DNA of 62,928 nt, the filler included. It is 4 parts of 4 records of this genome, joined end to end, with 100 filler letters (N's around TTAATTAATTAA, not from the genome) between each part and the next. Parts side by side here need not be neighbours in the genome. Positions count along the whole stretch, not along the records: positions 20,870 to 46,599 come from SRR20825006_480; 3 more parts are not named here. The stretch is one strand, 5' to 3'. The translations under genes were made by a program, and so were the position numbers. A model generated the notes under the pieces. That model saw nothing but the letters and a program-made list of their open reading frames with translations, searched no databases and had not been told where the DNA came from. Every line of letters starts with the position of its first letter. Position 1 is the stretch's first letter. Shown here piece after piece: positions 11,988 to 46,699 of this stretch.

Positions 11988-12035
11988 CGTTTCGATACAT
12001 TCAGCTCTTTAGATTGATCGGTGAAAGGACGCGCC

Positions 12036-14822: not shown

Positions 14823-14836
14823 GGGGGACCAAACCT

Positions 14837-24590: not shown

Positions 24591-27503
24591 TTATTTCACG
24601 ATAATTCGTTTTACTCTTCCGTTTTCTTTGTTTCCTATGCGAACCAAATAAACTCCTTTGGCAACATAGCCCATGTTTAACTTGTAGTTATAACCATCGC
24701 CATTATTCTCCAATTTGGTGAACAATAATCTTTGTCCAAGTGTATTGTGAACTGTTAAGGTCATAGACTCTGAATAGTTTTTTGTTTTTAAGCTAATGTC
24801 GAAGTTATTATTTTCTAATGTTAAAACTGTCAGGCCGTTTTCGTCAAAAATGCTGTCATTAACGCCTAGTGTTCCAATCTGCGCGGTATAATCTTCAGTT
24901 TCGCCAAAATTTGTTTCTTCACATGCATCATTTGGTACAGGTCCGTCCCAGTTAGATTTTGCACGCATTAAATGTTGACCAAGTGCTGCACCTGCTGGAA
25001 TTACTAAATCTGTTGTTATTGTAAATGTGCCGCTACCTTGCCCGGAAGCAATTTCAATATTATCGACTACGATTTCATCTGTTGTGAAAATAAAATCGTC
25101 ATTAAAGTCAATCCAAACACGGATAAACTGATCGCCATAACCTGTTGTAATAGTTAAGTCGTTAGTTGAGTCTTGCTCCATTCCAGCAATAAGGTGTGTG
25201 AAATCACCATACCCTTCACAAGCAGAAGGGTTGTTTATGTCTGTTAATTGAAAGAGTCTAAAGCCATCCCCAAACGAACAGTCACCAACTGGCTGGCAGT
25301 TTTGTTTTGTAATTACTACTGAAGTTGAATCGTTGGTAGTGTCGCTATCACCAGGTAAAGAAGTGGTAGCGCTTAAATTGTAACTTCCAAGGGCAGAGAA
25401 ATCTCCAGTTTGAGTGAAAGTGTATGTTGTTGATGAGTTTCCAGCTAATGGTCCTGCAACTACTTCAGTAACTACTGTTCCGTCTAAATCATAAGAAACG
25501 TCAAAATTAGATTGTGAAGCACCCCCGAAGTTGTTTATTGTAATTACAATGGCTTCAGTAGCTGTTAAATCAGTTCCAGAAACTGGAGATGAAATAGCTG
25601 TTACGCCAATATCATTTGGTTGTAAATAAGTAACTGATTTTGTACGGCCGTCATTTGTTGTGTCTTCATCACCAACCATATTTGTTTCAGCCATTATTGA
25701 ATACGTTTGACCAACAGTACCAAGATTTGCAGTTGCGGTAAAAGTATATTGAGCTGTTGTAGCGGAAGCAATTGTTCCTGTATATGTTTCAGAAATAACT
25801 GGGCCACCATCCACTTGAAATGTAACAGGAATGTTTGAGGCGCTATTTTGACCGTAATTAAAAATAGTAACGGTAACGGTTTCACTATTTGAAAGTGTTC
25901 CTGTTACTGGAGAATCTATACTTACCACACCAACATCATCGTTAAAATTAGGAGCAATTTGGAAAACACCAACAACATCTTTTCTCCCGCTGTTCATGTA
26001 TTCGTTTATAAACCAGAATTCCTTTCCATTTACTGGATCAAGGTCTATTTTACTATAATCTCCATAACGTGTTCCTGGAATATTTTGATTTCCTTCAGCA
26101 ATTAATTCTTCGCTAATTGTCATTGTGTTTAAGGGGTCATTTGCAAAACGACCTGTGTAATATGAACTTACTCTTTTAGTTGTTGGATTTGGGGTAGTTG
26201 GTCCAGCCATTGAAGTATAACCCATACCAATATTTCCTTGTACATCCATCATCATACTTGCATGCCAAGCGTGTTTTCCATCAGGGGAAGTATAGGTTCC
26301 TTCTTGGTATATTGACCAAGGTTGTCCATCGCCTGCTTGTCTTAGTTCAAACCATCTTATTCCAGCAAGTTCGCCACCTGTTGCATCCGTATCAACCACA
26401 AAGTTGAATACTGCTGAGTTGTGACTTCCAAATTTTCTAAATTGCGCTTGGTTCATTATAGTAGCTTGAAGGGCATCGATTGAAGCACCGCCACCTGGTT
26501 GTGCTAAATTTACAAAGCTACCGTTGTCGAATACTGAGATAAATGGAGTGGTTGTTAATTCTACTGGAGCTGAAATAGTTGAGTTTCCAGGTGTAGCCCA
26601 GTCTACATCTACTGTCCATATTTTTACGTGATCTTGAGTTACTCCACTCCATGCATCATCTTGTAAGTATATGATTGGTAATCCACCAGCAGCTGGTAAA
26701 TCATCATTTGTTACATTTAAAGCTTGAGGGCTATAAAAACCACTTGTTACAATGCCTGGTAAAGGGAAACCAACTATTTGTGCTGAAGCATCACCAGCAA
26801 GCATTTTAGTTCTCTCCATTGCGTAAATTCTATTTGAAGCAGTGGTATTGTCTGTCATGTAATAACCATCACTCCAAACTGAAAGTTTTTGATAGTCATT
26901 AATTTGTGGAATATTATAAACATACCAGCCATCATTTATTGGATCAGGACCATCGGAAACAGCTACTTGCGCTCCACTTCCTAAGAATGTTAATACAAAT
27001 CTATCTGCTGCATTATCATATGAAACTGTAAGGTCGCAACATCCTCCATTTGGAAAAATAGTTGGATTAGGGCTTACCTGTCCAGTTAAAGGGTTTCCGC
27101 TTTTATCAAAAATTCGGAACCCTGTGTTAAACACTACAATTACATGATTTGGACCAACGCCTATGGAAGGGTCGGTAGGTTGTGAGTTTGATGCAGCTGC
27201 ATCAAAAACTAAAGAAGGTGCTTTTCCGCTAAGTACTTGCTCCATTTTGTCAGGATTTCTCACAAAATAATCGTCTTCAATTTGAGGATCTTTTCCGGGG
27301 ATAATTAAATTTTTGGAAGCTCTTCCGTCTTGCATTACACGTTCTTTTACTCTAGCTGGAGCTAGGTCGGTCTGAGAGGCAATAGATGGAACGTGAACCA
27401 TCGAGCCTACTGTGCCCACAAGAGTGGCTTTTGTTTTTTCTTGCGCTTGTATCTGAAAAATAAAAGCGAAGAAAATTAGAATTAAAGTAAACTTAGTTTT
27501 CAT
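24591..27503 (-). CDS. T9SS cargo protein: uncharacterised N-terminal domain, two CARDB-like repeats, GEVED-like domain, type A CTD
   Basis: Signal peptide; repeats [13 protein letters not shown] and [19 protein letters not shown]...GETEDY; CTD ending GVYLVRI...KRIIVK. Confidence 0.8.
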
Positions 27504-27564: not shown

Positions 27565-28758
27565 TTATACTTGGTCTAAAGAAGCTTTAACACGTTTCAT
27601 AGCTTCTTTAATTTCTGATTCGGAGGTGGCATATGATATTCGTATGCAATTTGGGTCGCCAAACGCTTCACCAGTAACGGTAGCAACTTTGGCTTCTTCC
27701 AAAAGGTATAATGAAAAATCAGAAGCTGTGTTTATATTTTTTCCACGTAATGTTTTTCCGAAGAAATAGGATACATCAGGAAAAACATAAAAAGCACCTT
27801 CAGGTACATTGGTTTTAAAACCATTAATTTCAGAAAGTAATTTTAATATTAGGGTGCGTCTTTCTTTAAAAGCGTCCACCATAAATTTTATTTTACTTGG
27901 AGGGTTTTCTAAAGCAGTAATTGTAGCGCGTTGTGCTATACAGTTTGTTCCACTGGTTACTTGTCCTTGCATTTTATTGCAGGCTCGGGCAATCCACTCT
28001 GGGCCGCCAATGTATCCAATTCTCCAACCTGTCATTGAAAATGCTTTTGAAACACCATTTACAACTACGGTACGGTCATACATGTCATCAAATTCAGCCA
28101 TAGAAGCATGGCCTGACCCAAAGTTTATGTGCTCGTAGATTTCATCACTAATAACAATGATGTTTGGATATTTAACTAAAACATCAGCCAATTTTCGCAG
28201 TTCTTTTTTGCTATAAACAGATCCGCTAGGATTGCAAGGAGAACTATAAATTATAAGCTTGGTTTTTGGCGTTATCGCAGCTTCAAGGGCTTCGGCTGTA
28301 ACTTTAAAATCCGTTTCTATTGAGGTAGCAATTTCTTTCGGTATGCCGCCAGCAACTTTACATTGGTCTGCGTAGCTAACCCAATATGGAGCTGGCAACA
28401 ATACTTCGTCACCTTCATTTAAAAGCACCATTGTTAAATTTGCCAAGGATTGTTTTGCACCAGTAGAAACTACTATTTGGGATGGCGTATAGGTAAGATT
28501 ATTGTCTCGTTTAAATTTTGTAATTATAGCTTTCTTTAAGTCGCCATATCCATCTACAGGAGTGTAGGAGTGATAGTTGTCTTCAATTGCTTGGATGGCT
28601 GCTTGCTTTACATAATCTGGAACTGGAAAATCTGGCTCTCCCAGGCTTAAGCCTATGACGTCAATACCTTGTTCTTTTAGTTCTCTTGTTTTGGCTGCCA
28701 TTGCCAAAGTGGCCGAAGTTGCCATTTCGTTCACTCGTGTTGAAAGTCTTTTATCCAT
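27565..28758 (-). CDS. PLP-dependent class I aminotransferase (aspartate aminotransferase-like)
   Basis: LGEPDF, NPSG, SDEIYE, SKAFSMTGWRIG. Confidence 0.93.
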   Translation of the reverse strand: MDKRLSTRVNEMATSATLAMAAKTRELKEQGIDVIGLSLGEPDFPVPDYVKQAAIQAIEDNYHSYTPVDGYGDLKKAIITKFKRDNNLTYTPSQIVVSTGAKQSLANLTMVLLNEGDEVLLPAPYWVSYADQCKVAGGIPKEIATSIETDFKVTAEALEAAITPKTKLIIYSSPCNPSGSVYSKKELRKLADVLVKYPNIIVISDEIYEHINFGSGHASMAEFDDMYDRTVVVNGVSKAFSMTGWRIGYIGGPEWIARACNKMQGQVTSGTNCIAQRATITALENPPSKIKFMVDAFKERRTLILKLLSEINGFKTNVPEGAFYVFPDVSYFFGKTLRGKNINTASDFSLYLLEEAKVATVTGEAFGDPNCIRISYATSESEIKEAMKRVKASLDQV

Positions 28759-28763
28759 ATTAA

Positions 28764-29864
28764 TTATGCAGGTACGGTTGGTTTAAGCCCCATTTCTTTT
28801 AAATGACGAAAATGTGCCATAATTGCCTTGCGTGTAGTTTTATATTCTTTGTAAGGTAGGTTAAACTCTTTTGTGGTGTTTTTTACAATTTTTGAAATAT
28901 TAGTATAGTGGATGTGGCTAATATTTGGGAAAATATGATGCTCCACCTGATGGTTCAAGCCACCTGTATACCAATTTACGATTCTATTATTTGTTGAAAA
29001 ATTTACGGTTGTAAATAATTGGTGAATTGCCCACGTATTTTTCATGGTTCCGCTGGTGTCTGGAAGTAATATTTCTGAACCTTCAACTACATGTGCAAGT
29101 TGAAAAACTACACTCAGAATAATTCCAGCCACATAATGCATGATAAAGAACCCGATTAAAATTTTCCACCAAACTATGTTAAAAAATAAAATTGGAATTA
29201 CAATCCAAAGTGATAAATAAATCATTTTAGTAATAACTAAAATACTCCACTGGGTTGCTGGCTTTGGTAGTTTTCCGTAGGAAAGTTTACGTGCTAAATA
29301 CCTTTTAGTTTGAAAATAATCTGTGGTTAGCACCCAATTAAAAGTCAATAAACCATAAAAGAAAATGCTATAAATATGTTGAAACTTATGAAGTTTATGC
29401 CACTTTGAATGTTTGGAAAAACGAAGAATACGTCCAGCCTCTAAATCTTCATCATGTCCATGAATATTTGTGTAGGTATGGTGTAAAACATTGTGTTGTA
29501 CTTGCCAATTATACACATTGCCAGCAAGTATGTACATGCTACCCCCCATAACTTTATTTACCCATTTTTTAGATGAATAAGCTCCATGGTTTGCATCGTG
29601 CATAACGTTCATTCCTACGCCAGCCATGCCAATACCCATAATAACTGTTAGTATTAATTGTACCCAACCAGGAACATCTAGTGCAAGCAATAAAAAATAC
29701 GGGGTTAGGTAAATTGAAAACATGATAATAGTTTTCACGTGTAACCTCCAGTTTCCTGTGCGGGATAGATTATTATCCTTAAAATAATCGTTTACGCGTT
29801 TGTTCAATGTTCTAAAGAACTTAGCGCTGTCAATTCGTGAAAAGGTTAGATTTGTATAATTCAA
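28764..29864 (-). CDS. Membrane fatty acid (acyl-CoA) desaturase
   Basis: His boxes HDANH, HNVLHH, QVEHH. TTG start at 29864 inferred because a TAnnTTTG promoter lies at 29905-29912. Confidence 0.9.
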   Translation of the reverse strand: MNYTNLTFSRIDSAKFFRTLNKRVNDYFKDNNLSRTGNWRLHVKTIIMFSIYLTPYFLLLALDVPGWVQLILTVIMGIGMAGVGMNVMHDANHGAYSSKKWVNKVMGGSMYILAGNVYNWQVQHNVLHHTYTNIHGHDEDLEAGRILRFSKHSKWHKLHKFQHIYSIFFYGLLTFNWVLTTDYFQTKRYLARKLSYGKLPKPATQWSILVITKMIYLSLWIVIPILFFNIVWWKILIGFFIMHYVAGIILSVVFQLAHVVEGSEILLPDTSGTMKNTWAIHQLFTTVNFSTNNRIVNWYTGGLNHQVEHHIFPNISHIHYTNISKIVKNTTKEFNLPYKEYKTTRKAIMAHFRHLKEMGLKPTVPA

Positions 29865-29904
29865 TTTGAAAAAGTTTAACGGTGGTTTTTCACCATGAAA
29901 ACTA

Positions 29905-29975
29905 CAAAAATAGTCATCTTTTGCGTAAAAGTAGCGGTTGAAAACCATAAATTTATAGAAGATGTCCTACTTTTG
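29905..29975. promoter_or_regulatory. Divergent Bacteroidetes -7 promoter elements (TAnnTTTG)
   Basis: TATTTTTG on the minus strand (29905-29912) and TACTTTTG on the plus strand (29968-29975). Confidence 0.65.
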
Positions 29976-29991
29976 TAGCTGAAAAAATTTT

Positions 29992-30621
29992 ATGGAACTG
30001 ATACAAAAATATTTTCCTCAACTTACTGATATTCAAAAGCATCAATTTGAACTTCTTCAGAGCCTATATGAAGATTGGAATTTGAAGATAAATGTAGTTT
30101 CTCGTAAGGATATTGATGAGCTTTACCTTCGTCATGTTTTGCATTCACTTGGAATTGCAAAAATTCAATCATTTCTTCCTGGATCTAACATATTAGATGT
30201 TGGTACTGGCGGTGGATTTCCAGGAATTCCACTAGCTATTTTATATCCTGATGTCCAGTTTCATCTTGTAGATAGCATTGGGAAAAAAATAAAAGTAGTA
30301 GAGGAGGTTGTTGCTGGTTTAGAAATTAAAAATGTAAAAGCTACGAATGCTCGAGTAGAGGAGGTTTCTGGAAAATATGATTTTATAGTAAGCCGTGCCG
30401 TTGCGCAGATGGATACATTTGTGCATTGGATTAATGGGAAAGTGGCGAAAAAAAGTAATCATGAGCTAAAAAATGGTATTCTGTATTTAAAGGGGGGCGA
30501 TTTGACTGAAGAATTGAAGCTTTACCCAAAGGCAACCATATATCCTCTAAGCGAAATTTTTACAGAAAACTTTTATGAGACTAAAAGTGTAGTGCATCTT
30601 CCATTAAAATACAAAGGATAA
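29992..30621 (+). CDS. rsmG: 16S rRNA m7G527 methyltransferase
   Basis: RHVLHSL, DVGTGGGFPG, SRAV, LYLKG. Confidence 0.96.
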   Translation: MELIQKYFPQLTDIQKHQFELLQSLYEDWNLKINVVSRKDIDELYLRHVLHSLGIAKIQSFLPGSNILDVGTGGGFPGIPLAILYPDVQFHLVDSIGKKIKVVEEVVAGLEIKNVKATNARVEEVSGKYDFIVSRAVAQMDTFVHWINGKVAKKSNHELKNGILYLKGGDLTEELKLYPKATIYPLSEIFTENFYETKSVVHLPLKYKG

Positions 30622-30625
30622 TTAA

Positions 30626-30655
30626 TAAAAAACCCCGAACGAGTCGGGGTTCTTT
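30626..30655. terminator. Bidirectional terminator
   Basis: AAAAAACCCCGA-ACGAG-TCGGGGTT between convergent genes. Confidence 0.7.
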
Positions 30656-30673
30656 AAATATGTAAAGGCTTTA

Positions 30674-32359
30674 TTATTTAACAACCAAGAACTTTTTGGT
30701 AGTTAACTGATTGTCTTTAGCAATCTTCATAAAGTAAGTTCCAGCTTGTAACTGAGCAACGTTTATTTGAGCATCCATTGAAATATTATTTTCAGAAAGG
30801 ATTAATTTTCCAAGAATATCATATACTTCAATATTAGCATTTTCTGCATTTTTCAAATTGATTGTTGAAGTTGCAGGGTTTGGATATAAACGAACATTAT
30901 CAAGTTGATTTTGGTTTACTCCTAATACACCATTACTAGAGAAAGGAGAGCTTTCACCATTGCCATAGTTACCAGTTGTGTGGTATAACGGAGTTCCTTG
31001 GTTGTCAGTTATTGTTATTTCACCACCACCATTACTTGCAGTGTCAAGAATTCTGAATTCGTAGCAGTCTGCTGCTAATTGAAATGATTCAGTAATTGTT
31101 TGAGGGCTACCGTTTGGATATGGTCCACCACGATAAACAGATGTACCGTTAGAGTCGTAAACATACCATCTTACATCACTTCCACGGCTATCAACTTCCA
31201 TTACCATTGTTACATTACCAGTTCCTGCAGGAGCTTGATCGAAGGTTGTAGTTGCGCTGTTGTTAGCGTTATTGTCATCTCCAGGTAAGCTTATTGTTAC
31301 GTTATTAGTTCCTTGCATTGTATAAGGTACTTCAGGAAGTTCAATTGTTTCACTGTGAAGAGACATGATGTTTCCAGTCCAGTTATAGGTATTTGCAACG
31401 CCATTAATAGTGTATTCAATTGCCATAGATGTAATGGCATTTGTTCCTAAGTTTTGAACATTTACCACAGGAGCTACGTTCGTATCACAAGTAGCAGGTA
31501 TTTCAGAAATTGATCTAAGGTTTGCATCATTGTTATGAGTAAGACCTGTGTATGTTGGGTATGCAGTATGTCCGCTAGGAACTTCTTGACGAGTGTTTGT
31601 TATAAAAGCAGCTACTTGCATATCTGCAAGTTCGGTTGCTACACCATTGTAGTTTGCTGGAATGGTGTAAGTATATGAACGATCAACAAATGTACCTGTA
31701 GTAGTTGTGTTGATTATTTCACCCCATTGGCCAGTAATCATTTCAACTAAACGGTGATTATGGTTGTAGTTGTTTCCTGCTCCACCACCAGTTTGAGGAC
31801 CTTTGGTGTTGTTTTGTAATAAAGCTACATTTAAAAAGTTAGTAGCTTCTGGGCTGTTTGCGGTATAGTATCCTTCAACATCAATTGTAAGAACATTTGT
31901 GTTTACGTCAATAGAAGCTTTAATTCCAACATTAACAGGAGAGCCTTGCGCTAATGTTTCAGTTGAAGAAATGTTCCAAAAGTTTCGATACATGCTAGTT
32001 CCGCCTGAAGTATTTTCTCTTCCAGGAAAAACATGTCTGTTTATTGTTCCTGCTGGGTAACCTGTTAAGCCTGTTTGCCCAACAATAGCGGTTCCATAAG
32101 GTGTTCTAAAGTCTGGTTCGCCAGCACCTGGAACAGCATAACCACCAACGTGGATATTAATTAATACAACGCGACCCGGATTAGCGGCTAGTATTTCATT
32201 AGCAATTCGATGCCCGTCTGGGCAATAAGTACAGTGAATACCTGTGAATTCTTCAAGAACAACATTTTTGTTCTGAGGGGAGGTCGAGACAATTGTTTGT
32301 CCATAAGTAGCAAAAGCAAAAAATGCAAGAACTAAGCTAAGGGGTAGTTTTTTTAACAT
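30674..32359 (-). CDS. Omp28-like thioredoxin-fold protein with T9SS CTD
   Basis: Signal peptide; KNVVLEEFTGIHCTYCP (CxxC); YNHNH; CTD LYPNP...YDILGK...GTYFMKI...KKFLVVK. Confidence 0.85.
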   Translation of the reverse strand: MLKKLPLSLVLAFFAFATYGQTIVSTSPQNKNVVLEEFTGIHCTYCPDGHRIANEILAANPGRVVLINIHVGGYAVPGAGEPDFRTPYGTAIVGQTGLTGYPAGTINRHVFPGRENTSGGTSMYRNFWNISSTETLAQGSPVNVGIKASIDVNTNVLTIDVEGYYTANSPEATNFLNVALLQNNTKGPQTGGGAGNNYNHNHRLVEMITGQWGEIINTTTTGTFVDRSYTYTIPANYNGVATELADMQVAAFITNTRQEVPSGHTAYPTYTGLTHNNDANLRSISEIPATCDTNVAPVVNVQNLGTNAITSMAIEYTINGVANTYNWTGNIMSLHSETIELPEVPYTMQGTNNVTISLPGDDNNANNSATTTFDQAPAGTGNVTMVMEVDSRGSDVRWYVYDSNGTSVYRGGPYPNGSPQTITESFQLAADCYEFRILDTASNGGGEITITDNQGTPLYHTTGNYGNGESSPFSSNGVLGVNQNQLDNVRLYPNPATSTINLKNAENANIEVYDILGKLILSENNISMDAQINVAQLQAGTYFMKIAKDNQLTTKKFLVVK

Positions 32360-32400
32360 GATTTTAGATTTAAATAGTTGGTGAATATTAAAGTTTGTAA

Positions 32401-32662
32401 CAAATATACTTTTTTTATTTTAAGTTTAATCAATTGAAATACAATTTTTTAGCTTAAATTCGTTAAATTCTTATTATGTTTTTGTAAGGTTTTAAATTTT
32501 CTAAACTTTAACGAATTTTTAAAAGTAATAATTTTTTTTAAAAAAAAGCATATAAATGATGCTTAGCTGTATTTTTATTTGCCAATAATGTAGTTAAATG
32601 TTAAATATCTGGAATAGAATATTTAAAGAGATGATGTTTTTTAAATATTATCTTTACTTTTG
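32401..32662. promoter_or_regulatory. Divergent TAnnTTTG promoters
   Basis: TATATTTG on the minus strand (32401-32408) and TACTTTTG on the plus strand (32655-32662). Confidence 0.55.
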
Positions 32663-32705
32663 CTTTACTTAGTATAACTTAAGATTAACCCTAAAAACTA
32701 AAAAA

Positions 32706-33440
32706 ATGAAACTTAAATTACTTTTTTTAACTGTACTTGGTTCAGTTGCTATTGCAAATGCACAGTACACAGTAACTGATCACAATGGAGTAGAACTTCA
32801 AGAAGGTGACGTTAAAGAATATGGAACATTTGGGTACAACTCAGGTGCTAATTATGATTTTTTTGTTACTAACGACAATCCTACGGATGAGATTTATACA
32901 AGAATTGAATTTGTAAGCGCCGTAAATGCTACAGGTGAATTTTTCGAACTTTGTTATGCTTTACAATGTTACACAGGTTTGACGGTAGGTCAAACATTAC
33001 CTACAGCCCCACAGGTATTTCCAATAGGTGTTGGTGAAACTACTGGAGAAGGAAACCACTTTTTAAATTTTGGACCTGGAAATGGAACTGATATTTTGGA
33101 CTTTACTTTTGCTTTTCACCAGTATGAAGCGGATGGAGTTACTGAAATAGGTACTCCTTTAACTTTTACATACCGTTATAACCCAACATTAGGTGTTGAG
33201 GAAAATAGTAAACTTAATTTAACAATTCAGTCAACGGTTGTTTCTAATGAATTGGTATTGAATGTTAATGAACCAGTAAGTATGGTGGTTTACGATCTTC
33301 AAGGAAGAGTTGTAAAACAAGCTCGTTTCGAAATTGGTCGTCAAGCAGTTAATATGTCTGATTTAAGTTCACAAGCATATATTGTTAGATTTAATAACGA
33401 AAGAGGCGCTACACAAACTACAAAGATTGTTGTTAAGTAA
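32706..33440 (+). CDS. Small T9SS cargo protein with a single Cx4C pair
   Basis: Signal peptide; ELCYALQCY; CTD VYDLQGR...AYIVRF...TKIVVK. Confidence 0.8.
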   Translation: MKLKLLFLTVLGSVAIANAQYTVTDHNGVELQEGDVKEYGTFGYNSGANYDFFVTNDNPTDEIYTRIEFVSAVNATGEFFELCYALQCYTGLTVGQTLPTAPQVFPIGVGETTGEGNHFLNFGPGNGTDILDFTFAFHQYEADGVTEIGTPLTFTYRYNPTLGVEENSKLNLTIQSTVVSNELVLNVNEPVSMVVYDLQGRVVKQARFEIGRQAVNMSDLSSQAYIVRFNNERGATQTTKIVVK

Positions 33441-33460
33441 TTTTAAAAATTGCTTATACT

Positions 33461-33497
33461 AAAAATGCCCCGAAGTTTTCTTCGGGGCATTTTTTTA
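33461..33497. terminator. Bidirectional terminator
   Basis: AAAAATGCCCCGAAG-TTTT-CTTCGGGGCATTTTT. Confidence 0.85.
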
Positions 33498-33514
33498 TAG
33501 TTAAAAGTTGTTTC

Positions 33515-35173
33515 TTAAAAAGTAACAGCTAAGCTTGCAGTTAATCCTGTACTTGAAGGAACAAGTCTACATACTCCACCTACACAAATTAAACCACCAC
33601 GCTGACGGCCATAATTTAAAGCAAAACGTGTAGAACCTTTTGAGAAGCTTCCACCAAAAGTGTAATAATGAAGTTCTTTTTCGCCTCCATAATTCCAAGA
33701 ATCTGCTGCGTAAATCGTAAATGCAGAGTTAAAATTATATTCTAATACTCCTGCAGCCCAGTTTTTATCATCATCTGATGTCCATAGGTGCTGCAATTCA
33801 GCACGTAAAGCTTTTCCGCCTTCAAAGCGACGTGTTGCTTCAACCACTGCAATTTGAGCTCTAATGTCGCCTTCAGTACCTAAAATACCTCCTTTAGAAA
33901 CCGCTTTGTCAATTATTACATCTTGGAATGTAGCTATAGTGCTCCATTTTGAAGACCAACGGTTTTTAATTTCAATATTTAAATCACGGAAATAACGTTC
34001 GCCATCACCAATAAACTTAGCGTCATACGTTTGGTCAGCTACATTGAAAGTAGCTTCTAAACCTGCCCAGTATGAAAAGTTTCCAGCTACTTTAGTGCCA
34101 AGTTTTCCTAGTGTAGATTCCTTAGGGAAAGAATAATATACATCTACTTGAGTGCCAATTTCCCCAGCTCTTTTTTCAGAATCGCTAAATAATAAACGTG
34201 GTTGTGCATTATACACATATATGTTTGAAAGTAAATAATCGTGCTGTTTTGTAACTGCAGGTATGTAATTTACTATTTGTTCGTTAAATTGATTTCCTTC
34301 TGCATAACGGTCTGAGTAGAAACTAAAATTTTCTAATCTTCTAAATGTAGAATTGATTCCAAGACCTTTTTGGGCATACCCTAAGTTTACTTGAAGTGCA
34401 GTACCATCAAAAAGTTGTGGAGAAGTAATTACACCTTCGTTTACAATAACATCTGAATCTTTTGTAATTGCTTCAACACCACCATAAAAGTTGTTTGCAA
34501 CAAAATCCAATCTTCCTCCATAAGCATTTACTACTTTAGGTATAGAGTCGTTAGAATCATTAGATTGATAACGACCTACATAACTTCCACCAAGTTTTAA
34601 GTCTACAGCATCAATATTTAAAACACTACTTAAATCTAAGTTAGCATCTAAACCTTGAATTACACCTTCAGAAACATCAAATCCGTTTCTTATTTGGCCG
34701 TAAACCCCTGTAATATCTACATCTGCAGTAGGATTGAATTTAACGCGAAGACCTTTTAAGCCATTGTTTATGCCTAATTGGCGGTCTTCCCATGTTCTTA
34801 GTATTAAACCACTACCAAATTGTTCGTAGAAGTAACCTCCGGTAACATCAAGCTTGTCGTCTTTATAATTAATGTAGTATGTCCCTACACCATTTTGACC
34901 ATCCCAGATTGGAGAATATCCTAGCAAAGCTGCTGGAAGATATGATTCATATTGTACTCCAGCTGTAAATTTCCCGTAAGAATAGTTAAGTTGGAAGTAA
35001 TTATTAGCTCTAAATTGGCCAACTTCAAATTCATTTCCTTCAGGAAAAGAAAGACCTTCGTCAGGTTGAAGCCATTGCATGTTAGATTCAAGGCCACCAA
35101 AAAAGTAACCGTTGTTCTGTGAAAAGGAGATTGCACCTATAAGCATAAATGCTCCAAGTATTAGTTTTTTCAT
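33515..35173 (-). CDS. DUF6029-like outer-membrane beta-barrel protein
   Basis: Signal peptide, amphipathic beta-strands, C-terminal Phe; GYFYEQFGSGL and RQRGGLICVGGVCR motifs. Confidence 0.8.
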   Translation of the reverse strand: MKKLILGAFMLIGAISFSQNNGYFFGGLESNMQWLQPDEGLSFPEGNEFEVGQFRANNYFQLNYSYGKFTAGVQYESYLPAALLGYSPIWDGQNGVGTYYINYKDDKLDVTGGYFYEQFGSGLILRTWEDRQLGINNGLKGLRVKFNPTADVDITGVYGQIRNGFDVSEGVIQGLDANLDLSSVLNIDAVDLKLGGSYVGRYQSNDSNDSIPKVVNAYGGRLDFVANNFYGGVEAITKDSDVIVNEGVITSPQLFDGTALQVNLGYAQKGLGINSTFRRLENFSFYSDRYAEGNQFNEQIVNYIPAVTKQHDYLLSNIYVYNAQPRLLFSDSEKRAGEIGTQVDVYYSFPKESTLGKLGTKVAGNFSYWAGLEATFNVADQTYDAKFIGDGERYFRDLNIEIKNRWSSKWSTIATFQDVIIDKAVSKGGILGTEGDIRAQIAVVEATRRFEGGKALRAELQHLWTSDDDKNWAAGVLEYNFNSAFTIYAADSWNYGGEKELHYYTFGGSFSKGSTRFALNYGRQRGGLICVGGVCRLVPSSTGLTASLAVTF

Positions 35174-35198
35174 TTTGTAAATTTGGTTGGTAAGAAAT

Positions 35199-35684
35199 TT
35201 ATTTATTAGAGAACTCCTTTACTTTTTCATAAAGTTCCATCTCAGCGCCTGGGCTGTAACCAGAATGTCTATAAACAATCTGATTGTTTTTTACTAATAG
35301 TGTTAAGGGTACTGTTGCTGCACCAACAGCTCTTTTAAAATCGTTATTGGTATCTAACAATACTGTGTAATCCCAGCCTTTTCCGTTAACCATAGGTTTA
35401 ACACGTTTTACACCACGGCTATCGTCTATTGAGACTGCGTATAGTTTAACATTGGTTTCTTCTTGCCAATCTGTGTATACTTCACTAATAGCATCCAATT
35501 CTTTAATACAAGGTACGCACCAAGTAGCCCATAAAGAAACAATTACAACATTGTCATCAGTAGATAATGTTTGCGAATTGATAGGTTCACCATCTAAGGT
35601 AGTCATATCAACATTTGGTAAATCATTTTGTGCAATAGCAGTAAAACTAGCCATTACAAGGAGGAAGGAGAAAATTTTTTTCAT
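35199..35684 (-). CDS. TlpA-like thiol-disulfide oxidoreductase
   Basis: Signal peptide MKKIFSFLL; WATWCVPC; cis-Pro loop TVP. Confidence 0.92.
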   Translation of the reverse strand: MKKIFSFLLVMASFTAIAQNDLPNVDMTTLDGEPINSQTLSTDDNVVIVSLWATWCVPCIKELDAISEVYTDWQEETNVKLYAVSIDDSRGVKRVKPMVNGKGWDYTVLLDTNNDFKRAVGAATVPLTLLVKNNQIVYRHSGYSPGAEMELYEKVKEFSNK

Positions 35685-35845
35685 CGAATAGAATTTAAAT
35701 AAGTAGTTAAAGAGTAGCAATATTAAGTTTTTTTTAATAAAAAATTGTTTTTGTTTAACTGAAATTATGAATTTAACATTCTAAAACCGTGCCTCTTTTT
35801 ATAATATAGATTATATTAGCCCCCTACATTTTAATAATCAAAGTC

Positions 35846-37153
35846 ATGAAAAACCCCCACTATTTTAAACTCTTTTTATTTTTTGCCTTTATTGCAATTG
35901 TTGGTTGTAGTAAAAAAGAAGACCCAATTGGCGTAGCTGTAGAAGATTTGTCTATTGTTTTAACAAGCGATGTTGGAACTGGAGAATTAGAAGTTGTTAC
36001 CGAAGGTCAAATGGTTAACTTTACGGTTACTGGTAGCGATGAAGTAGATTATACTTCAACAGCAAAACTTTATGTAAACGATGTTGAAATTTCAAGTGCT
36101 TCACACCCATTTACTACTACAGGAACCTTTGCTGTAAAAGCAGTTCTCGGTGATGTTACAAGTAATATTCTAAATTTTGAAGTGCTTTCTGAAACACAAC
36201 GTGCCTTAACGGTAGATGTAAATAGAGCATTTAGAAATCAAACTATAACTTTTGGCTTGTTAGATTCAAATGGAGGAAATAGTGCTGCTGATGCTACATT
36301 TTATGTAAATAACGCTGCTATTTCAGGTTTTACATTTTCTTCAGCTAGTGAAGGAGGATTTGAAGTTTACGCAAAATACATGGTAAATGGTGAAGAATAC
36401 ACTTCTGCAACTAAAAACTTTTCTGTTTTTATTCCAAAAAAGAATGTAGTTCTAGAAGATTATACTGGTACATGGTGTGGCTTTTGTTTAGATGCAATCG
36501 TTGCGGTTGAAACAGTAAAGTCATTAACAGATCATGTAACTGTTGTTGCTATTCATAAAGAATCAGGTGGTGTGTTTGAACCATTACATTTTGATAGAAT
36601 TGATGAGCTTCAAGCCGAATTTGGGGTGCCAGATGGATTTCCTCAGACACAATTAGATAGAGCTACAAACTGGAAAAAAGTTCCTTCATATGATTATGAC
36701 GCTGTAATGGCATTGGCTGGGGTAGAAACTGATATGTCTATTGCAATCAATTCACAAATTACCGGCTCAAACCTCACTGTTGATGTTAAAGTTGTTTATG
36801 AAAATGGTTCAGAGCCTGGAGATAAACTGGTGGTTTATTTATTGGAAAATGGGGTAATTGCAGATCAAGTAAATTACTTTAACAATGTTGCAGGACACCC
36901 ATATCAAGGAGCTGGAAACCCTATTAAAGACTTCGAGCACAATGAAGGCTTAAGAAATACACTTTCTGGTTTATTTGGAGATCCTATTCCTGATACTCCT
37001 GCATACCAAGAATTTAAAAAGTCATACTCATTTAATGTGCCTTCAAATTATAACGCAGCTAATTTAAGTTTTGCAGTTATGGTTGTTAAAGCAGATAACG
37101 CTGCAAAAAACTCTCAGCATGCTGAAATAGGTCAAAGTAAAGATTACCAATAG
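35846..37153 (+). CDS. Omp28-like lipoprotein with CxxC
   Basis: Lipobox IVGC followed by SKKED; KKNVVLEDYTGTWCGFC; FEHNEGLR. Confidence 0.85.
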   Translation: MKNPHYFKLFLFFAFIAIVGCSKKEDPIGVAVEDLSIVLTSDVGTGELEVVTEGQMVNFTVTGSDEVDYTSTAKLYVNDVEISSASHPFTTTGTFAVKAVLGDVTSNILNFEVLSETQRALTVDVNRAFRNQTITFGLLDSNGGNSAADATFYVNNAAISGFTFSSASEGGFEVYAKYMVNGEEYTSATKNFSVFIPKKNVVLEDYTGTWCGFCLDAIVAVETVKSLTDHVTVVAIHKESGGVFEPLHFDRIDELQAEFGVPDGFPQTQLDRATNWKKVPSYDYDAVMALAGVETDMSIAINSQITGSNLTVDVKVVYENGSEPGDKLVVYLLENGVIADQVNYFNNVAGHPYQGAGNPIKDFEHNEGLRNTLSGLFGDPIPDTPAYQEFKKSYSFNVPSNYNAANLSFAVMVVKADNAAKNSQHAEIGQSKDYQ

Positions 37154-37173
37154 AATTAGATTTCTTCAAAACT

Positions 37174-37211
37174 AAAAAACCCATCTTGAAATTTTCAAGA
37201 TGGGTATTTTT
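37174..37211. terminator. Bidirectional terminator
   Basis: AAAAAACCCATCTTGAAA-TTTTCAAGATGGGT. Confidence 0.8.
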
Positions 37212-37228
37212 ATGAGGTAGTTTATGTG

Positions 37229-38854
37229 TTAACCTAAAAATGGATATCTATAGTCTACTGGAGAAACAAAGGTTTCTTTCACCATTCTAGGCGAAATCCA
37301 ACGGTATAAATTTAGTTTGCTTCCTGCTTTATCATTTGTTCCACTAGCACGCGCGCCACCAAAAGGTTGTTGGCCTACAACAGCTCCCGTAGGCTTGTCG
37401 TTGATGTAGAAATTTCCTGCTGCATTCTCTAAGGCTTTCATTGCAACTTCAAGCGCATATCTGTCTTCACTAAAAACAGCACCAGTTAAAGCGTATTCAC
37501 CTGAATTGTCAACAACTTCTAGTGTTTCATCCCACTTAGCGTCTTCAAAAACGTATACAGTTAAAACAGGGCCAAAAAGCTCTGTGCACATTGTTGTATA
37601 ATTTGGGTCTTTGGTTACTATAACTGTAGGCTCAATAAAGTAGCCTTTACTCTTGTCGTGGTTTCCTCCCGCAATTACTTCAACATTTTTGTCGGCTTTT
37701 GCAGCGTCAATATATTGTGCAAGCTTATCAAAAGATCCTTCGTGAATTACAGCAGTAATAAAGTTGCTCATATCTTCAGGAGAACCCATTTTGAATGAAT
37801 TGATGTCTTCAATCAGATATTTTTTTACATCTTCCCAAATGCTTTCAGAAATATAACATCTACTTGCAGCGCTACATTTTTGACCTTGAAACTCAAAAGC
37901 TCCACGGCTCATTGCTGTGGCAACTTGTTTTGGATTTGAAGTTTTATGAGCAACGATGAAATCTTTTCCTCCAGTTTCTCCTACAATTCGTGGGTATGTT
38001 TTGTAGTTGTGAATGTTTACACCAATTTGTTGCCAAATACTCTTGAAAACATGTGTTGATCCTGTAAAGTGAATGCCACTAAAATCTGGGCTTGCAAGAA
38101 CGGTTTCTGTAATCATAACAGGGTCACCCATTACCATATTTATAACACCTGCTGGTACACCTGCTTCACGGAAAACATCCTGAATAACTTTCGCAGAATA
38201 TACTTGGCTATCACTTGGTTTCCATAACACCACATTCCCCATCAATGCTGCACTTGCTGGAAGGTTTCCTGCAATAGCTGTAAAGTTAAAAGGTGTAATT
38301 GCATATACAAACCCTTCTAAAGGACGGTATTCAATTCGGTTCCATGCTCCAGAGGTAGATTCTGGTTGTTCTGCATAAATTTCAGTCATAAACTGAACGT
38401 TAAACCTTAAGAAATCTATAAGTTCACAAGCAGCATCAATTTCTGCTTGATAAATATTTTTTGATTGCGCCAACATGGTAGCAGCATTAATTTTTGCTCT
38501 GTAAGGACCCGCAATAAGTTCTGCCGCGCGAAGAAAAATCCCTGCACGTTGCTCCCAAGGCATTGCTGCCCATTTTTTTCTTGCTTCCAAAGCAGTTGAA
38601 ATAGCTTCTTCTACATTGCTTTTTGTGGCTTTATGGTAGGTTCCTAATACATGTTTGTGATCATGCGGAGGAGACATTGTTGCAGTGTCGTTTGTTTTTA
38701 CCTCTTTTCCATTGATAAATAGCGGTACTTCCACTTTTTCACCATACATTTTTTTGTAAGTTTCAAGCACTTCTTCTCGTTCTGTGGATCCTGGAGCATA
38801 GCTCTTTACAGGCTCGTTTACCGCGATTGGCACTTTAAAAAATCCTTTTCCCAT
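37229..38854 (-). CDS. pruA: Delta-1-pyrroline-5-carboxylate dehydrogenase
   Basis: QAEIDAACE, FTGST, GETGGKDF, GQKCSAAS, QPFGGARASGTNDKAGS. Confidence 0.95.
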   Translation of the reverse strand: MGKGFFKVPIAVNEPVKSYAPGSTEREEVLETYKKMYGEKVEVPLFINGKEVKTNDTATMSPPHDHKHVLGTYHKATKSNVEEAISTALEARKKWAAMPWEQRAGIFLRAAELIAGPYRAKINAATMLAQSKNIYQAEIDAACELIDFLRFNVQFMTEIYAEQPESTSGAWNRIEYRPLEGFVYAITPFNFTAIAGNLPASAALMGNVVLWKPSDSQVYSAKVIQDVFREAGVPAGVINMVMGDPVMITETVLASPDFSGIHFTGSTHVFKSIWQQIGVNIHNYKTYPRIVGETGGKDFIVAHKTSNPKQVATAMSRGAFEFQGQKCSAASRCYISESIWEDVKKYLIEDINSFKMGSPEDMSNFITAVIHEGSFDKLAQYIDAAKADKNVEVIAGGNHDKSKGYFIEPTVIVTKDPNYTTMCTELFGPVLTVYVFEDAKWDETLEVVDNSGEYALTGAVFSEDRYALEVAMKALENAAGNFYINDKPTGAVVGQQPFGGARASGTNDKAGSKLNLYRWISPRMVKETFVSPVDYRYPFLG

Positions 38855-39000
38855 AATTTTTTTATGTTTTCTATTTATGAAGATTGCAAAGGTACAATTT
38901 TTTTAGTGTTTAGTAGGCTGTAGCTTTGGGCAGTTTTTGGTCGCTACGTAGAAAAACAATTATTTTATAAAGGTTAAAATTTATATTATTTAGTAGCTTT

Positions 39001-39023
39001 ACTGAACACTGAACACTGAACAC
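39001..39023. repeat. Heptamer tandem repeat (ACTGAAC)x3
   Basis: Read directly upstream of the NRDE gene. Confidence 0.75.
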
Positions 39024-39033
39024 CTTTTAATAT

Positions 39034-39741
39034 ATGTGCACAATTACTTTTGTTCCAAAATCTGATGGCAATTTTGTTTTAACCTCAAACCGTGATGAAG
39101 CGCCTGGACGTGAAACATTTTCGCCAAAAATATATGAAGAAGAAGGCTTGAAATTAGTGTATCCTAAAGATGCAGTTGCTGGTGGAACTTGGATTGGTAT
39201 AAGCGAACACAAACGGTTGGTTTGCTTGATGAATGGTGGTTTTGTGGCGCATGAACGTAATTCCTTTTACAAAAAAAGCAGAGGTTTGGTGGTGAAAGAC
39301 CTTTTGAAAACTGAAAATTTTAAAGTCGAAATTAGCAATTATGATTTCAATGAAATTGAGCCTTTTACGGCTGTAATTGTAACATGGAGCATGGAAGTAG
39401 AATTGTTTCAACTTGTTTGGGATGGTTTAAAGTATCATTTTTCTGAAGAGCCACTTGCGCCACAAATATGGTCGTCATCACCTTTATATCCTGAAAATTT
39501 AAAAAAGAAACGCGAACACTGGTTTTCTGAATTTCTATTTGAAAAGATTAAACCTTCAAATGAAGAAATTCTTGAATTTCATAAAACAGCAGGAGAAGGC
39601 GATTTAAGCAGCAACCTTATAATGGATCGTGGTTTTATAAAAACAAAAAGCATTACCCAAATTAATATGCTTAATGAAACTGTTGAAATGCGGTACGAAG
39701 ATTTACAAATGGAAACAATCAGCAATACAATTTTCTCATAG
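39034..39741 (+). CDS. NRDE/TANGO2-family protein
   Basis: MCT start, SNRDE, GGTWIG, SRG motifs. Confidence 0.88.
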   Translation: MCTITFVPKSDGNFVLTSNRDEAPGRETFSPKIYEEEGLKLVYPKDAVAGGTWIGISEHKRLVCLMNGGFVAHERNSFYKKSRGLVVKDLLKTENFKVEISNYDFNEIEPFTAVIVTWSMEVELFQLVWDGLKYHFSEEPLAPQIWSSSPLYPENLKKKREHWFSEFLFEKIKPSNEEILEFHKTAGEGDLSSNLIMDRGFIKTKSITQINMLNETVEMRYEDLQMETISNTIFS

Positions 39742-39794
39742 ACATCACATCTAATTTTTCTTCGGAATAGAAATTTTTAGAATGTAATAATCGA

Positions 39795-40181
39795 TTAATT
39801 CATAGAAAAAGGTGCACTCAAGTTGAAGAGTGGGATAGAAACTCTAAATTTTCTAGTTGTGGTGAAATTTACCATGTTGTAATGTCCTTTCATTGCGCCA
39901 AAAGGAGAAAGCAAAAGACAGCCGCTGGTGTATGAATGTTTGTCGCCAGGAAGTAATATTGGTTTTTGACCGATTACACCTTCGCCTTCAATAATTTGCG
40001 TGTTACTAAGAGAATCCTTTATTTTCCAGCTACGCGCTATAAGTTGAACTGTGTCCTTGCTTTGGTTTTCAATGGTAATAGTATAGGCAAAGGCATATTG
40101 CATTTTACGATTTTTGTAAAATGTGCCGTCAAATTCCGTTTTTACCGAAATTTTAATTCCTTGTGTTACTTGTTGAACCAT
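39795..40181 (-). CDS. apaG: ApaG protein
   Basis: FAYTITIEN, GEGVIGQKP, YTSGC, GAMKGHY. Confidence 0.93.
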   Translation of the reverse strand: MVQQVTQGIKISVKTEFDGTFYKNRKMQYAFAYTITIENQSKDTVQLIARSWKIKDSLSNTQIIEGEGVIGQKPILLPGDKHSYTSGCLLLSPFGAMKGHYNMVNFTTTRKFRVSIPLFNLSAPFSMN

Positions 40182-41336: not shown

Positions 41337-42596
41337 TTAATTATTCGAAATATTTGTTGAATTTGCGTAACCAGAGCCAATAATTCGATCATATCTAGCG
41401 CCTAAATCTCGAAAATAAACAATAACAGTATAGTTGTTTTCTGTTTGCCAAAAATCGCCGCTAACAGCTCCCTCATCAATGCTGCCATCACGATTTACAA
41501 CTACATACTTATAGTTGTAAAAACCTTGCTTAAACAAGCGGGAATTTCTGTAGGTGTCGCTACTTGAGTCGTATTTCATGTAAGTGCTGCCATCAATAGT
41601 CCAATTATTGAAGTTGCCATAAAGGTGCAATTCCTTGTCGCCATCACCCAAATCATCATAATACTGAAGGTTGAAATGCACACGCACATATTCTGCTTCC
41701 AAATCTTGGTTTTGTGCATCAACATTACGAACCAAAAAGTTTCCATTTATATCTGGATTGTATGTGTAAGGACGGTCGTATCTTGGAATGTTTGTGTAGA
41801 GTTGGTTTTCATAGACGTCTGTTAAGTTTACAGAACGTACTCCATTACTGGCTGAGCGTTCATCTTTATTGTCGAATGAAAGAAATTCATTTCCGCCACC
41901 AAAAGAAGCTTCTTTGTCATATTTATAGATTAGCTCATTGCCCATAGTGTATTGCGGCACCAAATCTGTAATGGCAGTTTTTAGGTTGCTATTTTGAAGT
42001 ACGAGTGTTTTTACAGTCTGTTTTGGGTTTATCAACAATAAATTAGGTGAATTTATTGAAAACTGAACCACTTGCTTTTCATTTATGGTTTTTAAATCTC
42101 GGGAACGTTTAATCTCTACGCCAACGCTTGCAATATTTTCCATAACCAAAAATTTACGAGTAAAAACAAGATCGCCGTCACCATTTGAAATACTAAGTAA
42201 ATAGTTTCCACTTTTTTCAATAGCACGGGTATCTCGGTTGGGGATTGTAAGCTGGTAATGCGAAAATATTTGAAGTGTATTTAATGAGTTTTGGTAGGTT
42301 TGTATACGAACATCATCAAAACCATTTAGGTATTCACTTTTAGAAAGATCGCTTGGTGACCAATCAAAATTATAGTGTGTTATTGTGTAATAATAATCTT
42401 CTTCCTCGCCATTTAATGCATCAAATGAAAGCTGTAGCTTGTCTCCAAGTTGAATAATTGGCAGTTGGCTTAAATCTGTTGCACCTCGAAATTGAATGGT
42501 GCTTATATATGAAGGTTCAACTTTTTCAACAATTTGAGCAAGTGTAGGAAAAAAAGTTAGAAGTAAAAAAAGGGTAGTGGCAAGAGTTTTTAACAT
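41337..42596 (-). CDS. DUF5103 protein (probably the T9SS Plug homologue)
   Basis: Signal peptide; SGNY, GGNEF..FD, KQGFYNY, TENNY, YDRIIG. The Plug assignment is from recalled family knowledge. Confidence 0.7.
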   Translation of the reverse strand: MLKTLATTLFLLLTFFPTLAQIVEKVEPSYISTIQFRGATDLSQLPIIQLGDKLQLSFDALNGEEEDYYYTITHYNFDWSPSDLSKSEYLNGFDDVRIQTYQNSLNTLQIFSHYQLTIPNRDTRAIEKSGNYLLSISNGDGDLVFTRKFLVMENIASVGVEIKRSRDLKTINEKQVVQFSINSPNLLLINPKQTVKTLVLQNSNLKTAITDLVPQYTMGNELIYKYDKEASFGGGNEFLSFDNKDERSASNGVRSVNLTDVYENQLYTNIPRYDRPYTYNPDINGNFLVRNVDAQNQDLEAEYVRVHFNLQYYDDLGDGDKELHLYGNFNNWTIDGSTYMKYDSSSDTYRNSRLFKQGFYNYKYVVVNRDGSIDEGAVSGDFWQTENNYTVIVYFRDLGARYDRIIGSGYANSTNISNN

Positions 42597-44246: not shown

Positions 44247-44251
44247 TCGCT

Positions 44252-45451: not shown

Positions 45452-45453
45452 TC

Positions 45454-46203: not shown

Positions 46204-46206
46204 ATT

Positions 46207-46599
46207 ATGGGATTGCTATCAAAAAAAGACAGTAAGTTAATTTTAGACCCATTGGCAGACAACAACCCTATTACCATTCAGGTATTAGGTATCTGTTCTG
46301 CACTAGCTATTACTGCACAATTGAAAGCTTCAATTGTAATGGCTATTTCTGTAGTTGCGGTTTTAGGTATTGGAAACGTTGTTATTTCGCTAATGCGAAA
46401 TATAATTCCATCAAAAATTAGAATTATCGTTCAACTTGTTGTAGTAGCTGCTTTGGTTATTATAGTAGATCAAGTGCTAAAAGCATTTGCTTATTCTTTA
46501 AGTAAGGAATTATCCGTTTTTATAGGATTAATCATTACCAACTGTATTATTATGGGACGTTTTGAAGCATTTGCTTTGGGTAACGGTCCTTGGAAATCT
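46207..46599 (+). CDS. nqrD: Na+-NQR subunit D, 3'-truncated at the gap
   Basis: [16 protein letters not shown] and [12 protein letters not shown]. Confidence 0.95.
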
Positions 46600-46699
46600 N
46601 NNNNNNNNNNNNNNNNNNNNNNNNNNNNNNNNNNNNNNNNNNNTTAATTAATTAANNNNNNNNNNNNNNNNNNNNNNNNNNNNNNNNNNNNNNNNNNNN
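46600..46699. other. Artificial contig spacer
   Basis: N-run with TTAATTAATTAA; composition switches from AT-rich to GC-rich. Confidence 0.98.

Follow-up and report, generated by a model that had tools for sequence, protein, structure and literature searches.

A conserved thiol-redox module in the envelope of Aequorivita

We are confident that five adjacent genes from Aequorivita (A to E, positions 30674-37153 of the DNA that we analysed) form a conserved and functional thiol-redox module of the cell envelope. This DNA (the window) is 62,928 nucleotides long and joins four parts of one genome; the five genes lie in the part from SRR20825006_480. The protein encoded by gene C is 99% identical to its homologue in Aequorivita sp. 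Q41 (locus L001 of genome G202), which identifies the window as Aequorivita DNA. Gene C encodes an outer-membrane β-barrel of the DUF6029 family, gene D (tlpA) encodes a TlpA-like protein, genes A and E encode Omp28-like proteins, and gene B encodes a small type IX secretion system (T9SS) cargo. Our comparisons point to a constant trio: a periplasmic TlpA that is fixed to the barrel, a barrel with an exposed and invariant cysteine hairpin, and a surface-addressed protein with a thioredoxin fold. Thiol chemistry appears to be the conserved theme of the module because natural TlpA-barrel fusions exist and because the surface thioredoxins can be replaced by members of another thioredoxin family. 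We suggest, tentatively, that the module might transfer reducing equivalents across the outer membrane.

Conservation of the module

We examined two sets of loci. The close loci are the best 80 of 598 relatives in species-representative genomes (at least 37% identity), which is a biased sample. In all 76 of the close loci with upstream DNA, the next gene upstream of the barrel on the same strand was tlpA (median gap 8 nt). An Omp28-like gene lay less than 400 nt from tlpA in 71 of 72 loci and was divergent from it in 70. An Omp28-like gene was also within 450 nt of the B-like gene in 36 of 40 cases. No other family of neighbours was found in more than 30 of the 80 close loci, and the next commonest neighbours are housekeeping genes of close relatives. 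The small cargo (gene B) and the secreted Omp28 protein (gene A) are accessory, as each of them was found in roughly half of the loci with full coverage.

For the distant loci, we sampled the phylum around G202 (301 genomes, 80 of which have a DUF6029 match) and took 40 loci whose matches were weak to middling. In all 40, tlpA and the barrel are neighbours on one strand, with an Omp28 gene between the two in one locus and a spacing of about 1 kb in two. Within about 3 kb, 38 of the 40 encode another exported CxxC protein. The 20 most distant loci (L081-L100) have the gene order tlpA, barrel, a lipoprotein of 173-178 amino acids, and a protein of about 268 amino acids, with CPHC in both of the latter. 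In the locus that we scanned with Pfam (L099, 8437-9782), both CPHC proteins belong to the Redoxin family, and the longer of them carries a T9SS sorting domain. Because Redoxin-type proteins replace the Omp28-type proteins in this distant clade, the family of the surface partner can apparently change while its predicted thioredoxin fold and surface address remain constant.

The cysteines are conserved as well. The pair in the barrel (C530 and C535) was invariant in all 137 aligned sequences, which were the query and 136 of the best 150 relatives (the other 14 were shorter than 480 amino acids and were left out). The CxxC motif was kept in 77 of 77 TlpA sequences from close loci, in 76-77 of 77 E-like proteins, and in 39 of 45 aligned sequences of the A family (the other 6 are gaps); the cysteines of the B family were invariant in 41 of 41 sequences. 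An original prediction, which was made from this DNA alone, had proposed that the five genes form a redox relay whose neighbourhood and cysteines should be conserved across Bacteroidetes. Both the tlpA-barrel neighbourhood and the cysteines are conserved as it expected. Its expectation that all five genes co-occur stands for tlpA, the barrel and a surface thioredoxin, and at about half of the loci for each of A and B.

The gene arrangement far exceeds chance. First, tlpA, the barrel and Omp28 recur together at nearly every related locus. Second, the near-identical genome G202 has two matches to Omp28 and one to DUF6029, and all of them fall within the cluster.

TlpA and its coupling to the barrel

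Gene D matches the Pfam families AhpC-TSA, Redoxin and Thioredoxin, all above the cut-off, and its residues W52, W55, C56, P58 and C59 are invariant across 64 sequences. Its closest solved relative is 2m72 (E = 6.2e-41; the next match has E = 2.3e-11). From the WCxPC motif and the Pfam matches, we predict that gene D encodes a thioredoxin-fold protein of the TlpA/ResA type that acts as a reductant. G202 has nine TlpA-like matches, and gene D corresponds to a separate paralogue among them (E = 4.8e-75, versus 2.3e-15 for the next). Proteins of the TlpA type with WCxPC are the usual clients of DsbD/CcdA pathways. The window does not contain a gene for DsbD or CcdA; G202 encodes DsbD (a 700-amino-acid frame) and a CcdA-like gene, both outside of the module.

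We found two natural fusions of TlpA to DUF6029: P0148 (695 amino acids), which is one of the DUF6029 representatives, and P0391 (697 amino acids), which turned up in a search with the first 200 residues of P0148. The two proteins are 69% identical and come from different sources. Both retain WCGPC and CVGGVC, and the linker from the last helix of TlpA to strand 1 of the barrel is about 10 residues. Because of these fusions and their short linker, we predict that TlpA acts at the barrel's periplasmic mouth.

The DUF6029 barrel

Gene C matches DUF6029 (PF19494) over model positions 1-538 of 538 (E = 1.2e-205, 684.7 bits), and the family has 909 relatives at E ≤ 0.001 among 1.84 billion cluster representatives. 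The two invariant cysteines lie within a conserved GRQRxG..CxGGxCRxVP stretch just ahead of the last strand. The Cx4C motif is kept in 39 of the 40 distant loci; the exception (L118) has a broken C-terminus.

An AlphaFold2 model of the barrel has a pLDDT of 92, a pTM of 0.88, and about 24 long strands. In this model, strands 515-531 and 534-551 pair as a single long hairpin, the two cysteines flank its Gly-Gly turn, and the C-terminal residue is Phe. Since the C-terminal Phe would be periplasmic and the number of strands is even, the turn should be extracellular, so that strand parity puts the cysteine pair at the predicted tip of extracellular loop 12. After the hairpin, the most conserved stretch of the family is a loop at residues 113-141, which resembles a pore-lining loop, given its inferred position.

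A Foldseek search with the model returned generic barrels of 22-26 strands and nothing else, with TM-scores of 0.3-0.5. These matches include 22-strand TonB receptors, 24-strand ushers (TMq up to 0.52), and 26-strand LptD and MtrB; Wzi is not among the matches listed. Large barrels of the 24-strand class, such as the 22-strand TonB receptors and the 24-strand ushers, house plug domains. In the literature that we searched, DUF6029 is in print solely as a possible polysaccharide porin: the accessible part of PMC9603273 ties DUF6029-like barrels to polysaccharide export through an HHpred similarity to Wzi.

Surface-addressed thioredoxin-like proteins

In the product of gene A, a signal peptide and a thioredoxin-like/Omp28 region come first, then a middle region (about 225 amino acids) with two further conserved cysteines, and last a C-terminal domain (CTD). 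Its Pfam matches are Omp28 (PF11551; 62 bits, E = 8.1e-17; cut-off 34.9) and Por_Secre_tail, which is the T9SS type A CTD (64 bits, E = 1.6e-17). By sequence, it matches two proteins in the PDB: HBP35 (5y1a, E = 1.2e-6, residues 29-235) and Omp28 (2r2c, E = 1.3e-5).

The product of gene E matches Omp28 more strongly (93.1 bits, E = 2.3e-26, with the same cut-off). Its lipobox (IVGC) is followed by SKKEDP, in agreement with the original prediction, which had described an Omp28-like lipoprotein with lysine and acidic residues after the lipidated cysteine. After the lipobox there are an N-terminal extension of about 170 amino acids, a segment that resembles thioredoxin or protein disulfide isomerase (PDI) and carries WCGFC, and an Omp28 domain. 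Of 73 E-like homologues, 68 contain a lipobox, and 61 of these 68 have an acidic residue at most 6 positions past the cysteine. An acidic motif in this place resembles the export signal of surface lipoproteins in Bacteroidota. Neither protein reaches the cut-off of 150 for the NCBIfam subfamily of Omp28 lipoproteins, NF033782 (A scores 81.7 bits and E scores 62.3 bits).

A profile of the E family matches 2r2c (E = 8.7e-12), 5y1a (E = 2e-10) and PDI A4 (E = 3.9e-7) in the PDB, and also thioredoxins. The C-terminal half accounts for the match to 2r2c, and the half that bears the CxxC motif matches HBP35, PDI A4 and thioredoxins. These latter matches lead us to predict that the Omp28 proteins are thioredoxin-like and are not hairpin partners. 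Furthermore, Omp28-related selenoproteins form an NCBIfam family (NF045500), and because selenocysteine forms exist, the CxxC of Omp28-like proteins is probably catalytic. Relatives with selenocysteine abound in the ocean (PMC2398784).

Gene A resembles HBP35 of Porphyromonas gingivalis in that both encode a T9SS cargo in which a thioredoxin-like CxxC at the N-terminus precedes an Omp28-like region and a CTD, and we classify gene A as a putative HBP35-like T9SS thioredoxin on the basis of its CxxC and CTD. Gene A differs in its length (561 amino acids, with an extra middle region), in its position next to tlpA and the barrel, and in its host, an aerobic marine flavobacterium. In the accessible text of PMC2907840, HBP35 is described as a T9SS cargo on the cell surface that reduces insulin in vitro through its CxxC motif; it also binds haemin and helps growth where haemin is in short supply.

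A PorA-like cargo

The product of gene B consists of a signal peptide that ends in AQ, an N-terminal immunoglobulin-like (Ig-like) domain with CYALQC on a β-hairpin, and a type A CTD (27.2 bits versus a cut-off of 27; 30.4 bits versus 23 for TIGR04183). We compared the N-domain of its AlphaFold2 model (pLDDT 90.8) to 48,161 chains with VIA-align. The top match was the N-domain of PorA (6kjk; PGN_0123 in P. gingivalis), with Z = 10.8 and a root-mean-square deviation of 3.3 over 127 of 134 residues; the next-best chain had Z = 8.6. A profile of the N-domain also had 6kjk as its sole match in the PDB. This match was weak (E = 0.013), and it aligned the invariant LCFxxC to a cysteine pair of PorA. 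Gene B and PorA are similar in length (244 and 246 amino acids; the length of PorA is from the accessible part of PMC7712824), and both have a type A CTD. From the fold of the modelled N-domain and the profile match, we propose that gene B encodes a homologue of PorA.

Other searches did not point to PorA. Among the 120 matches listed (of 207) for the profile of the B family, no protein is named PorA. Foldseek with the whole model of gene B found generic proteins with two Ig domains, such as pilus chaperones, and did not list 6kjk. A search of the PDB with the single sequence gave antibody chains (best E = 2.8e-4), which we took to be chance matches.

As described in the available portions of PMC12152298 and PMC7712824, the CTD of PorA binds PorY and switches on T9SS genes (PMC12152298), PorA can reach the surface without T9SS, signalling does not require its four cysteines (PMC7712824, PMC12152298), and its homologues are reported in Porphyromonas only (PMC7712824). 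In P. gingivalis, the locus tags in the accessible text of PMC13744359 and PMC4335976 put PorA (PG2172, 6kjk), Omp28 (PG2173, 2r2c), the uncharacterised vesicle protein PG2174, and the thioredoxin-domain protein PG2175 side by side. The counterparts in our cluster are gene B, which matches the PorA N-domain, and genes A and E, which match Omp28. The order and orientation of the genes differ, and PorA alone is known to have been studied, as a regulator of T9SS.

Small proteins with sorting domains and LCFxxC are also encoded directly upstream of tlpA in four distant loci (L101-L104). One of them, a 495-amino-acid protein in L101 (6863-8350, minus strand), has three tandem PorA-like N-domains, each with CFxxC.

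Association with type IX secretion

SprA_N was matched in all 80 of the DUF6029-positive genomes and in 237 of the 301 genomes overall. If both searches of the phylum drew the same genomes, as their handles suggest, then 157 of the 221 genomes without DUF6029 have SprA_N. (These counts include related genomes that are not independent of each other.) Within the sampled genomes of the phylum, the DUF6029 barrel occurs only where SprA, the translocon of type IX secretion, is present.

We also tried GldM_1st (PF12081) as a marker for T9SS and rejected it. It was matched in 75 of the 301 genomes, and it missed all five of the five DUF6029-positive genomes with 45 to at least 150 CTD matches. In G202-G502, the matches to GldM_1st fell almost solely on every fourth genome, and carriers of SprA and CTDs were missed. 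For some of the phylum, PF12081 is thus a poor marker for T9SS.

The window also contains, about 4 kb from the module, a gene with the first domain of the T9SS plug protein (PF17116, E = 4e-40; 41337-42596, minus strand).

Possible roles of the module

The most economical mechanism is that reducing equivalents are passed from TlpA to the surface proteins; we find this plausible, with rather less than even confidence. TlpA would be kept reduced by DsbD or CcdA, which are encoded elsewhere in the genome, and would dock where the barrel opens to the periplasm. The barrel complex would then hand the reducing equivalents, by thiol-disulfide exchange, to lipoprotein E, to protein A, and perhaps to B. 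The surface proteins would thereby stay active as reductases or isomerases in oxidising surroundings, and the arrangement would be the outer-membrane counterpart of the route from DsbD to DsbC. Because the barrel's own cysteine pair would be extracellular, a thioredoxin domain, supplied by either TlpA or the lipoprotein, would probably have to be inside the lumen of the barrel, or else some other bridge would be needed. We consider it possible, and on the whole doubtful, that the barrel is a porin-thioredoxin conduit in which a luminal thioredoxin domain passes reducing equivalents to the extracellular cysteine hairpin and from there to the PDI-like and PorA-like proteins.

Several observations weigh against a relay of reducing equivalents to the surface. 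By strand parity in the model, the cysteine pair of the barrel would be a membrane's thickness away from TlpA. A purely structural staple would likewise take the form of a Cx4C with a Gly-Gly turn inside it. Among the 44 close loci with 9 kb on each side, just 20 have an A-like gene, 24 have a B-like gene, and 19 have both. The oxidase DsbA has a CPHC motif, so the CPHC surface proteins of the distant clade leave the direction of electron flow uncertain. Finally, cysteine mutants of PorA from P. gingivalis retained signalling, according to the accessible part of PMC12152298.

The original prediction was that CxxC and Cx4C partners alternate in a relay across the outer membrane. The alternation is seen: the CxxC motifs are in thioredoxin-like folds, and the Cx4C motifs are on hairpins of the barrel and of the Ig-like, PorA-type domain. 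The prediction as a whole is partly supported: a conserved module with alternating pairs agrees with it, but an extracellular pair in the barrel cannot by itself link TlpA to the surface.

The main rival is a role in biogenesis or export, with a structural disulfide in the barrel, and we view this as a real but unlikely alternative. The barrel would be the anchor or a dedicated surface route for the Omp28 lipoprotein and the PorA-like cargo; TlpA would reduce or pair the cysteines of the cargo and the barrel while they cross the periplasm, and no electrons would flow after assembly. The adjacency of PorA, Omp28, PG2174 and PG2175 by locus tag in P. gingivalis (in the accessible text of PMC13744359 and PMC4335976) is consistent with this role, as are the PorA-like genes directly upstream of tlpA in L101-L104. 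The extracellular site of the hairpin and its Gly-Gly turn would suit a structural staple, and the closest folds to the barrel include the 24-strand ushers, which export folded Ig-like subunits. Such a role might in addition account for PorA's arrival at the surface when T9SS is absent. However, a transient chaperone role does not predict permanent fusions of TlpA to the barrel, nor does an export platform predict that the surface partner keeps a thioredoxin fold when its family is swapped. About half of the loci have no PorA-like gene to serve, and the selenocysteine variants of Omp28-like proteins (NF045500) indicate catalysis rather than a folding intermediate.

It is less likely, and we think improbable, that the barrel is a channel whose substrate is a small thiol or disulfide, or a compound of selenium, a metal or haem. 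The thioredoxin-like surface proteins would capture or release the compound, and TlpA would reduce it at entry or load it at exit. The binding of haemin by HBP35 and its aid to growth under haemin scarcity (accessible part of PMC2907840) fit with this idea. So do a TlpA that is tethered about 10 residues from strand 1, which would be at the mouth of the pore; the conserved loop at 113-141, which in its inferred position resembles a pore-lining loop; and the link of DUF6029-like barrels to polysaccharide export through Wzi in the available text of PMC9603273, although Wzi is missing from our listed fold matches. Against a channel, the module has no conserved neighbour that is a transporter, a binding protein or a metabolic enzyme (the next family reaches 30 of 80 loci and is housekeeping), and replacement by plain Redoxin proteins speaks against a ligand site that is specific to Omp28.

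Least likely of all, and very improbable in our view, is a sensor that uses the PorA-like protein to report the redox state of the envelope or surface to T9SS expression, much as PorA signals via PorXY-SigP in P. gingivalis: gene B is a putative PorA homologue, the CTD of PorA turns on T9SS genes through PorY, and SprA accompanies every DUF6029 genome versus a fraction of the others, but the four cysteines of PorA are dispensable for signalling (accessible part of PMC12152298) and so is the PorA-like gene in about half of the loci, where TlpA, the barrel and the surface thioredoxin are constant.

Comparison with known systems

The transfer of reducing equivalents that we favour resembles the pathways from DsbD/CcdA to TlpA, CcmG and DsbC in that thiol-disulfide exchange alternates between thioredoxin folds and a cysteine hairpin that is not in a thioredoxin fold. 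The Ig-fold α domain of DsbD is a precedent for such a hairpin in electron transfer. To our knowledge, the known DsbD/CcdA pathways end in the periplasm, and none of them includes an outer-membrane barrel or acceptors that are addressed to the surface.

In MtrCAB, a periplasmic carrier, a large barrel and a carrier on a surface lipoprotein pass electrons across the outer membrane, which is the same architectural logic. MtrB (6r2q) was at rank 10 of the fold matches to our barrel (TM 0.36). MtrCAB differs in that it uses haems and not thiols, and its sequence is unrelated; that a thioredoxin domain nests in the DUF6029 barrel is our conjecture.

We found no published description of the module in literature searches (subscription journals were outside their coverage). 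What is new here is the identification of a PorA-like cargo, the resemblance to HBP35, the TlpA-barrel fusions, the replacement of surface partners in the Redoxin clade, and the association with SprA.

Gene layout and surrounding DNA

We re-read the five open reading frames from the DNA, and their families and cysteine motifs agree with the earlier coordinates (Table 1). Genes A and B diverge, B and C converge, D and E diverge, and D and C are on the same strand with a gap of 25 nt, so D and C are probably co-transcribed as an operon. The start of tlpA is probably the ATG at 35684, which gives 161 amino acids, rather than the TTG at 35720. These orientations and the terminator-like hairpins agree with the original prediction of five adjacent genes in two divergent pairs that are bounded by terminators. 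Its claim that every protein is exported and carries a cysteine pair also holds, with signal peptides assessed by eye on the N-termini. The region has 12 terminator-like hairpins, versus 4.7 +/- 2.7 in shuffled sequence. The two divergent intergenic regions have AT-rich words in common and no shared operator-like motif. The genes on either side of the cluster are unrelated and have housekeeping roles: rsmG and genes for a desaturase, an aminotransferase and an aldehyde dehydrogenase.

Table 1. Features of the module, with positions in the window
Feature	Position	Strand	Description
Terminator-like hairpin 3' of gene A	30626..30656	-	13 pairs, then a T-run
Gene A	30674..32359	-	561 aa, putative HBP35-like secreted protein; Omp28 and T9SS type A CTD; HCTYC at nt 32222-32236
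Gene B	32706..33440	+	244 aa, putative PorA-like small T9SS cargo; CYALQC at nt 32952-32969
Terminator-like hairpin between convergent B and C	33461..33494	.	15 pairs; A/T runs flank both sides
Gene C	33515..35173	-	552 aa, DUF6029 outer-membrane β-barrel; CVGGVC at nt 33569-33586
Gene D (tlpA)	35199..35684	-	161 aa, predicted soluble periplasmic TlpA/ResA-type protein; WCVPC at nt 35508-35522
Gene E	35846..37153	+	435 aa, Omp28-family lipoprotein; lipobox Cys21 at nt 35906-35908; WCGFC at nt 36473-36487
Bidirectional terminator-like hairpin 3' of gene E	37179..37205	.	found on both strands

Elsewhere in the window, an Nqr operon (42894-46647) follows the PF17116 gene. A cluster at 5085-15598 has a flavour of denitrification: it includes NnrU, NnrS, a Crp-type regulator, and plastocyanin/azurin-like, multicopper-oxidase-like and FGE-sulfatase-like genes. 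At 24591-27503 (minus strand) there is a gene for a 970-amino-acid protein with CARDB and GEVED domains that is probably secreted to the surface.

We used G202 as the reference genome instead of G001. G001, nominally the nearest genome, shares 31-letter words with the window (23% of them), but neither the barrel protein nor positions 28000-40000 of the window matched anything in it, and PF19494 was found in none of the 201 genomes of the family of G001. Either the words that G001 and the window have in common come from other parts of the window, or G001 is not a close relative.

Significance

We know of no pathway that keeps cysteine enzymes reduced beyond the outer membrane of Gram-negative bacteria, though HBP35-type surface thioredoxins exist. 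If the porin-thioredoxin conduit is real, it would be the first known case in which reducing power is carried by cysteines across a bacterial outer membrane. It would be both the thiol counterpart of MtrCAB and the outer-membrane sequel to DsbD, and it would serve proteins that are secreted by T9SS. The module is a concrete candidate with three parts, and it is genetically tractable in Flavobacterium and Porphyromonas. If gene B is a homologue of PorA, then PorA would be widened from a family restricted to Porphyromonas to one found across Bacteroidota, and the PorA, Omp28 and HBP35-type proteins of a periodontal pathogen would be placed in one functional context. The module may also explain how PorA arrives at the surface without the type IX machinery.

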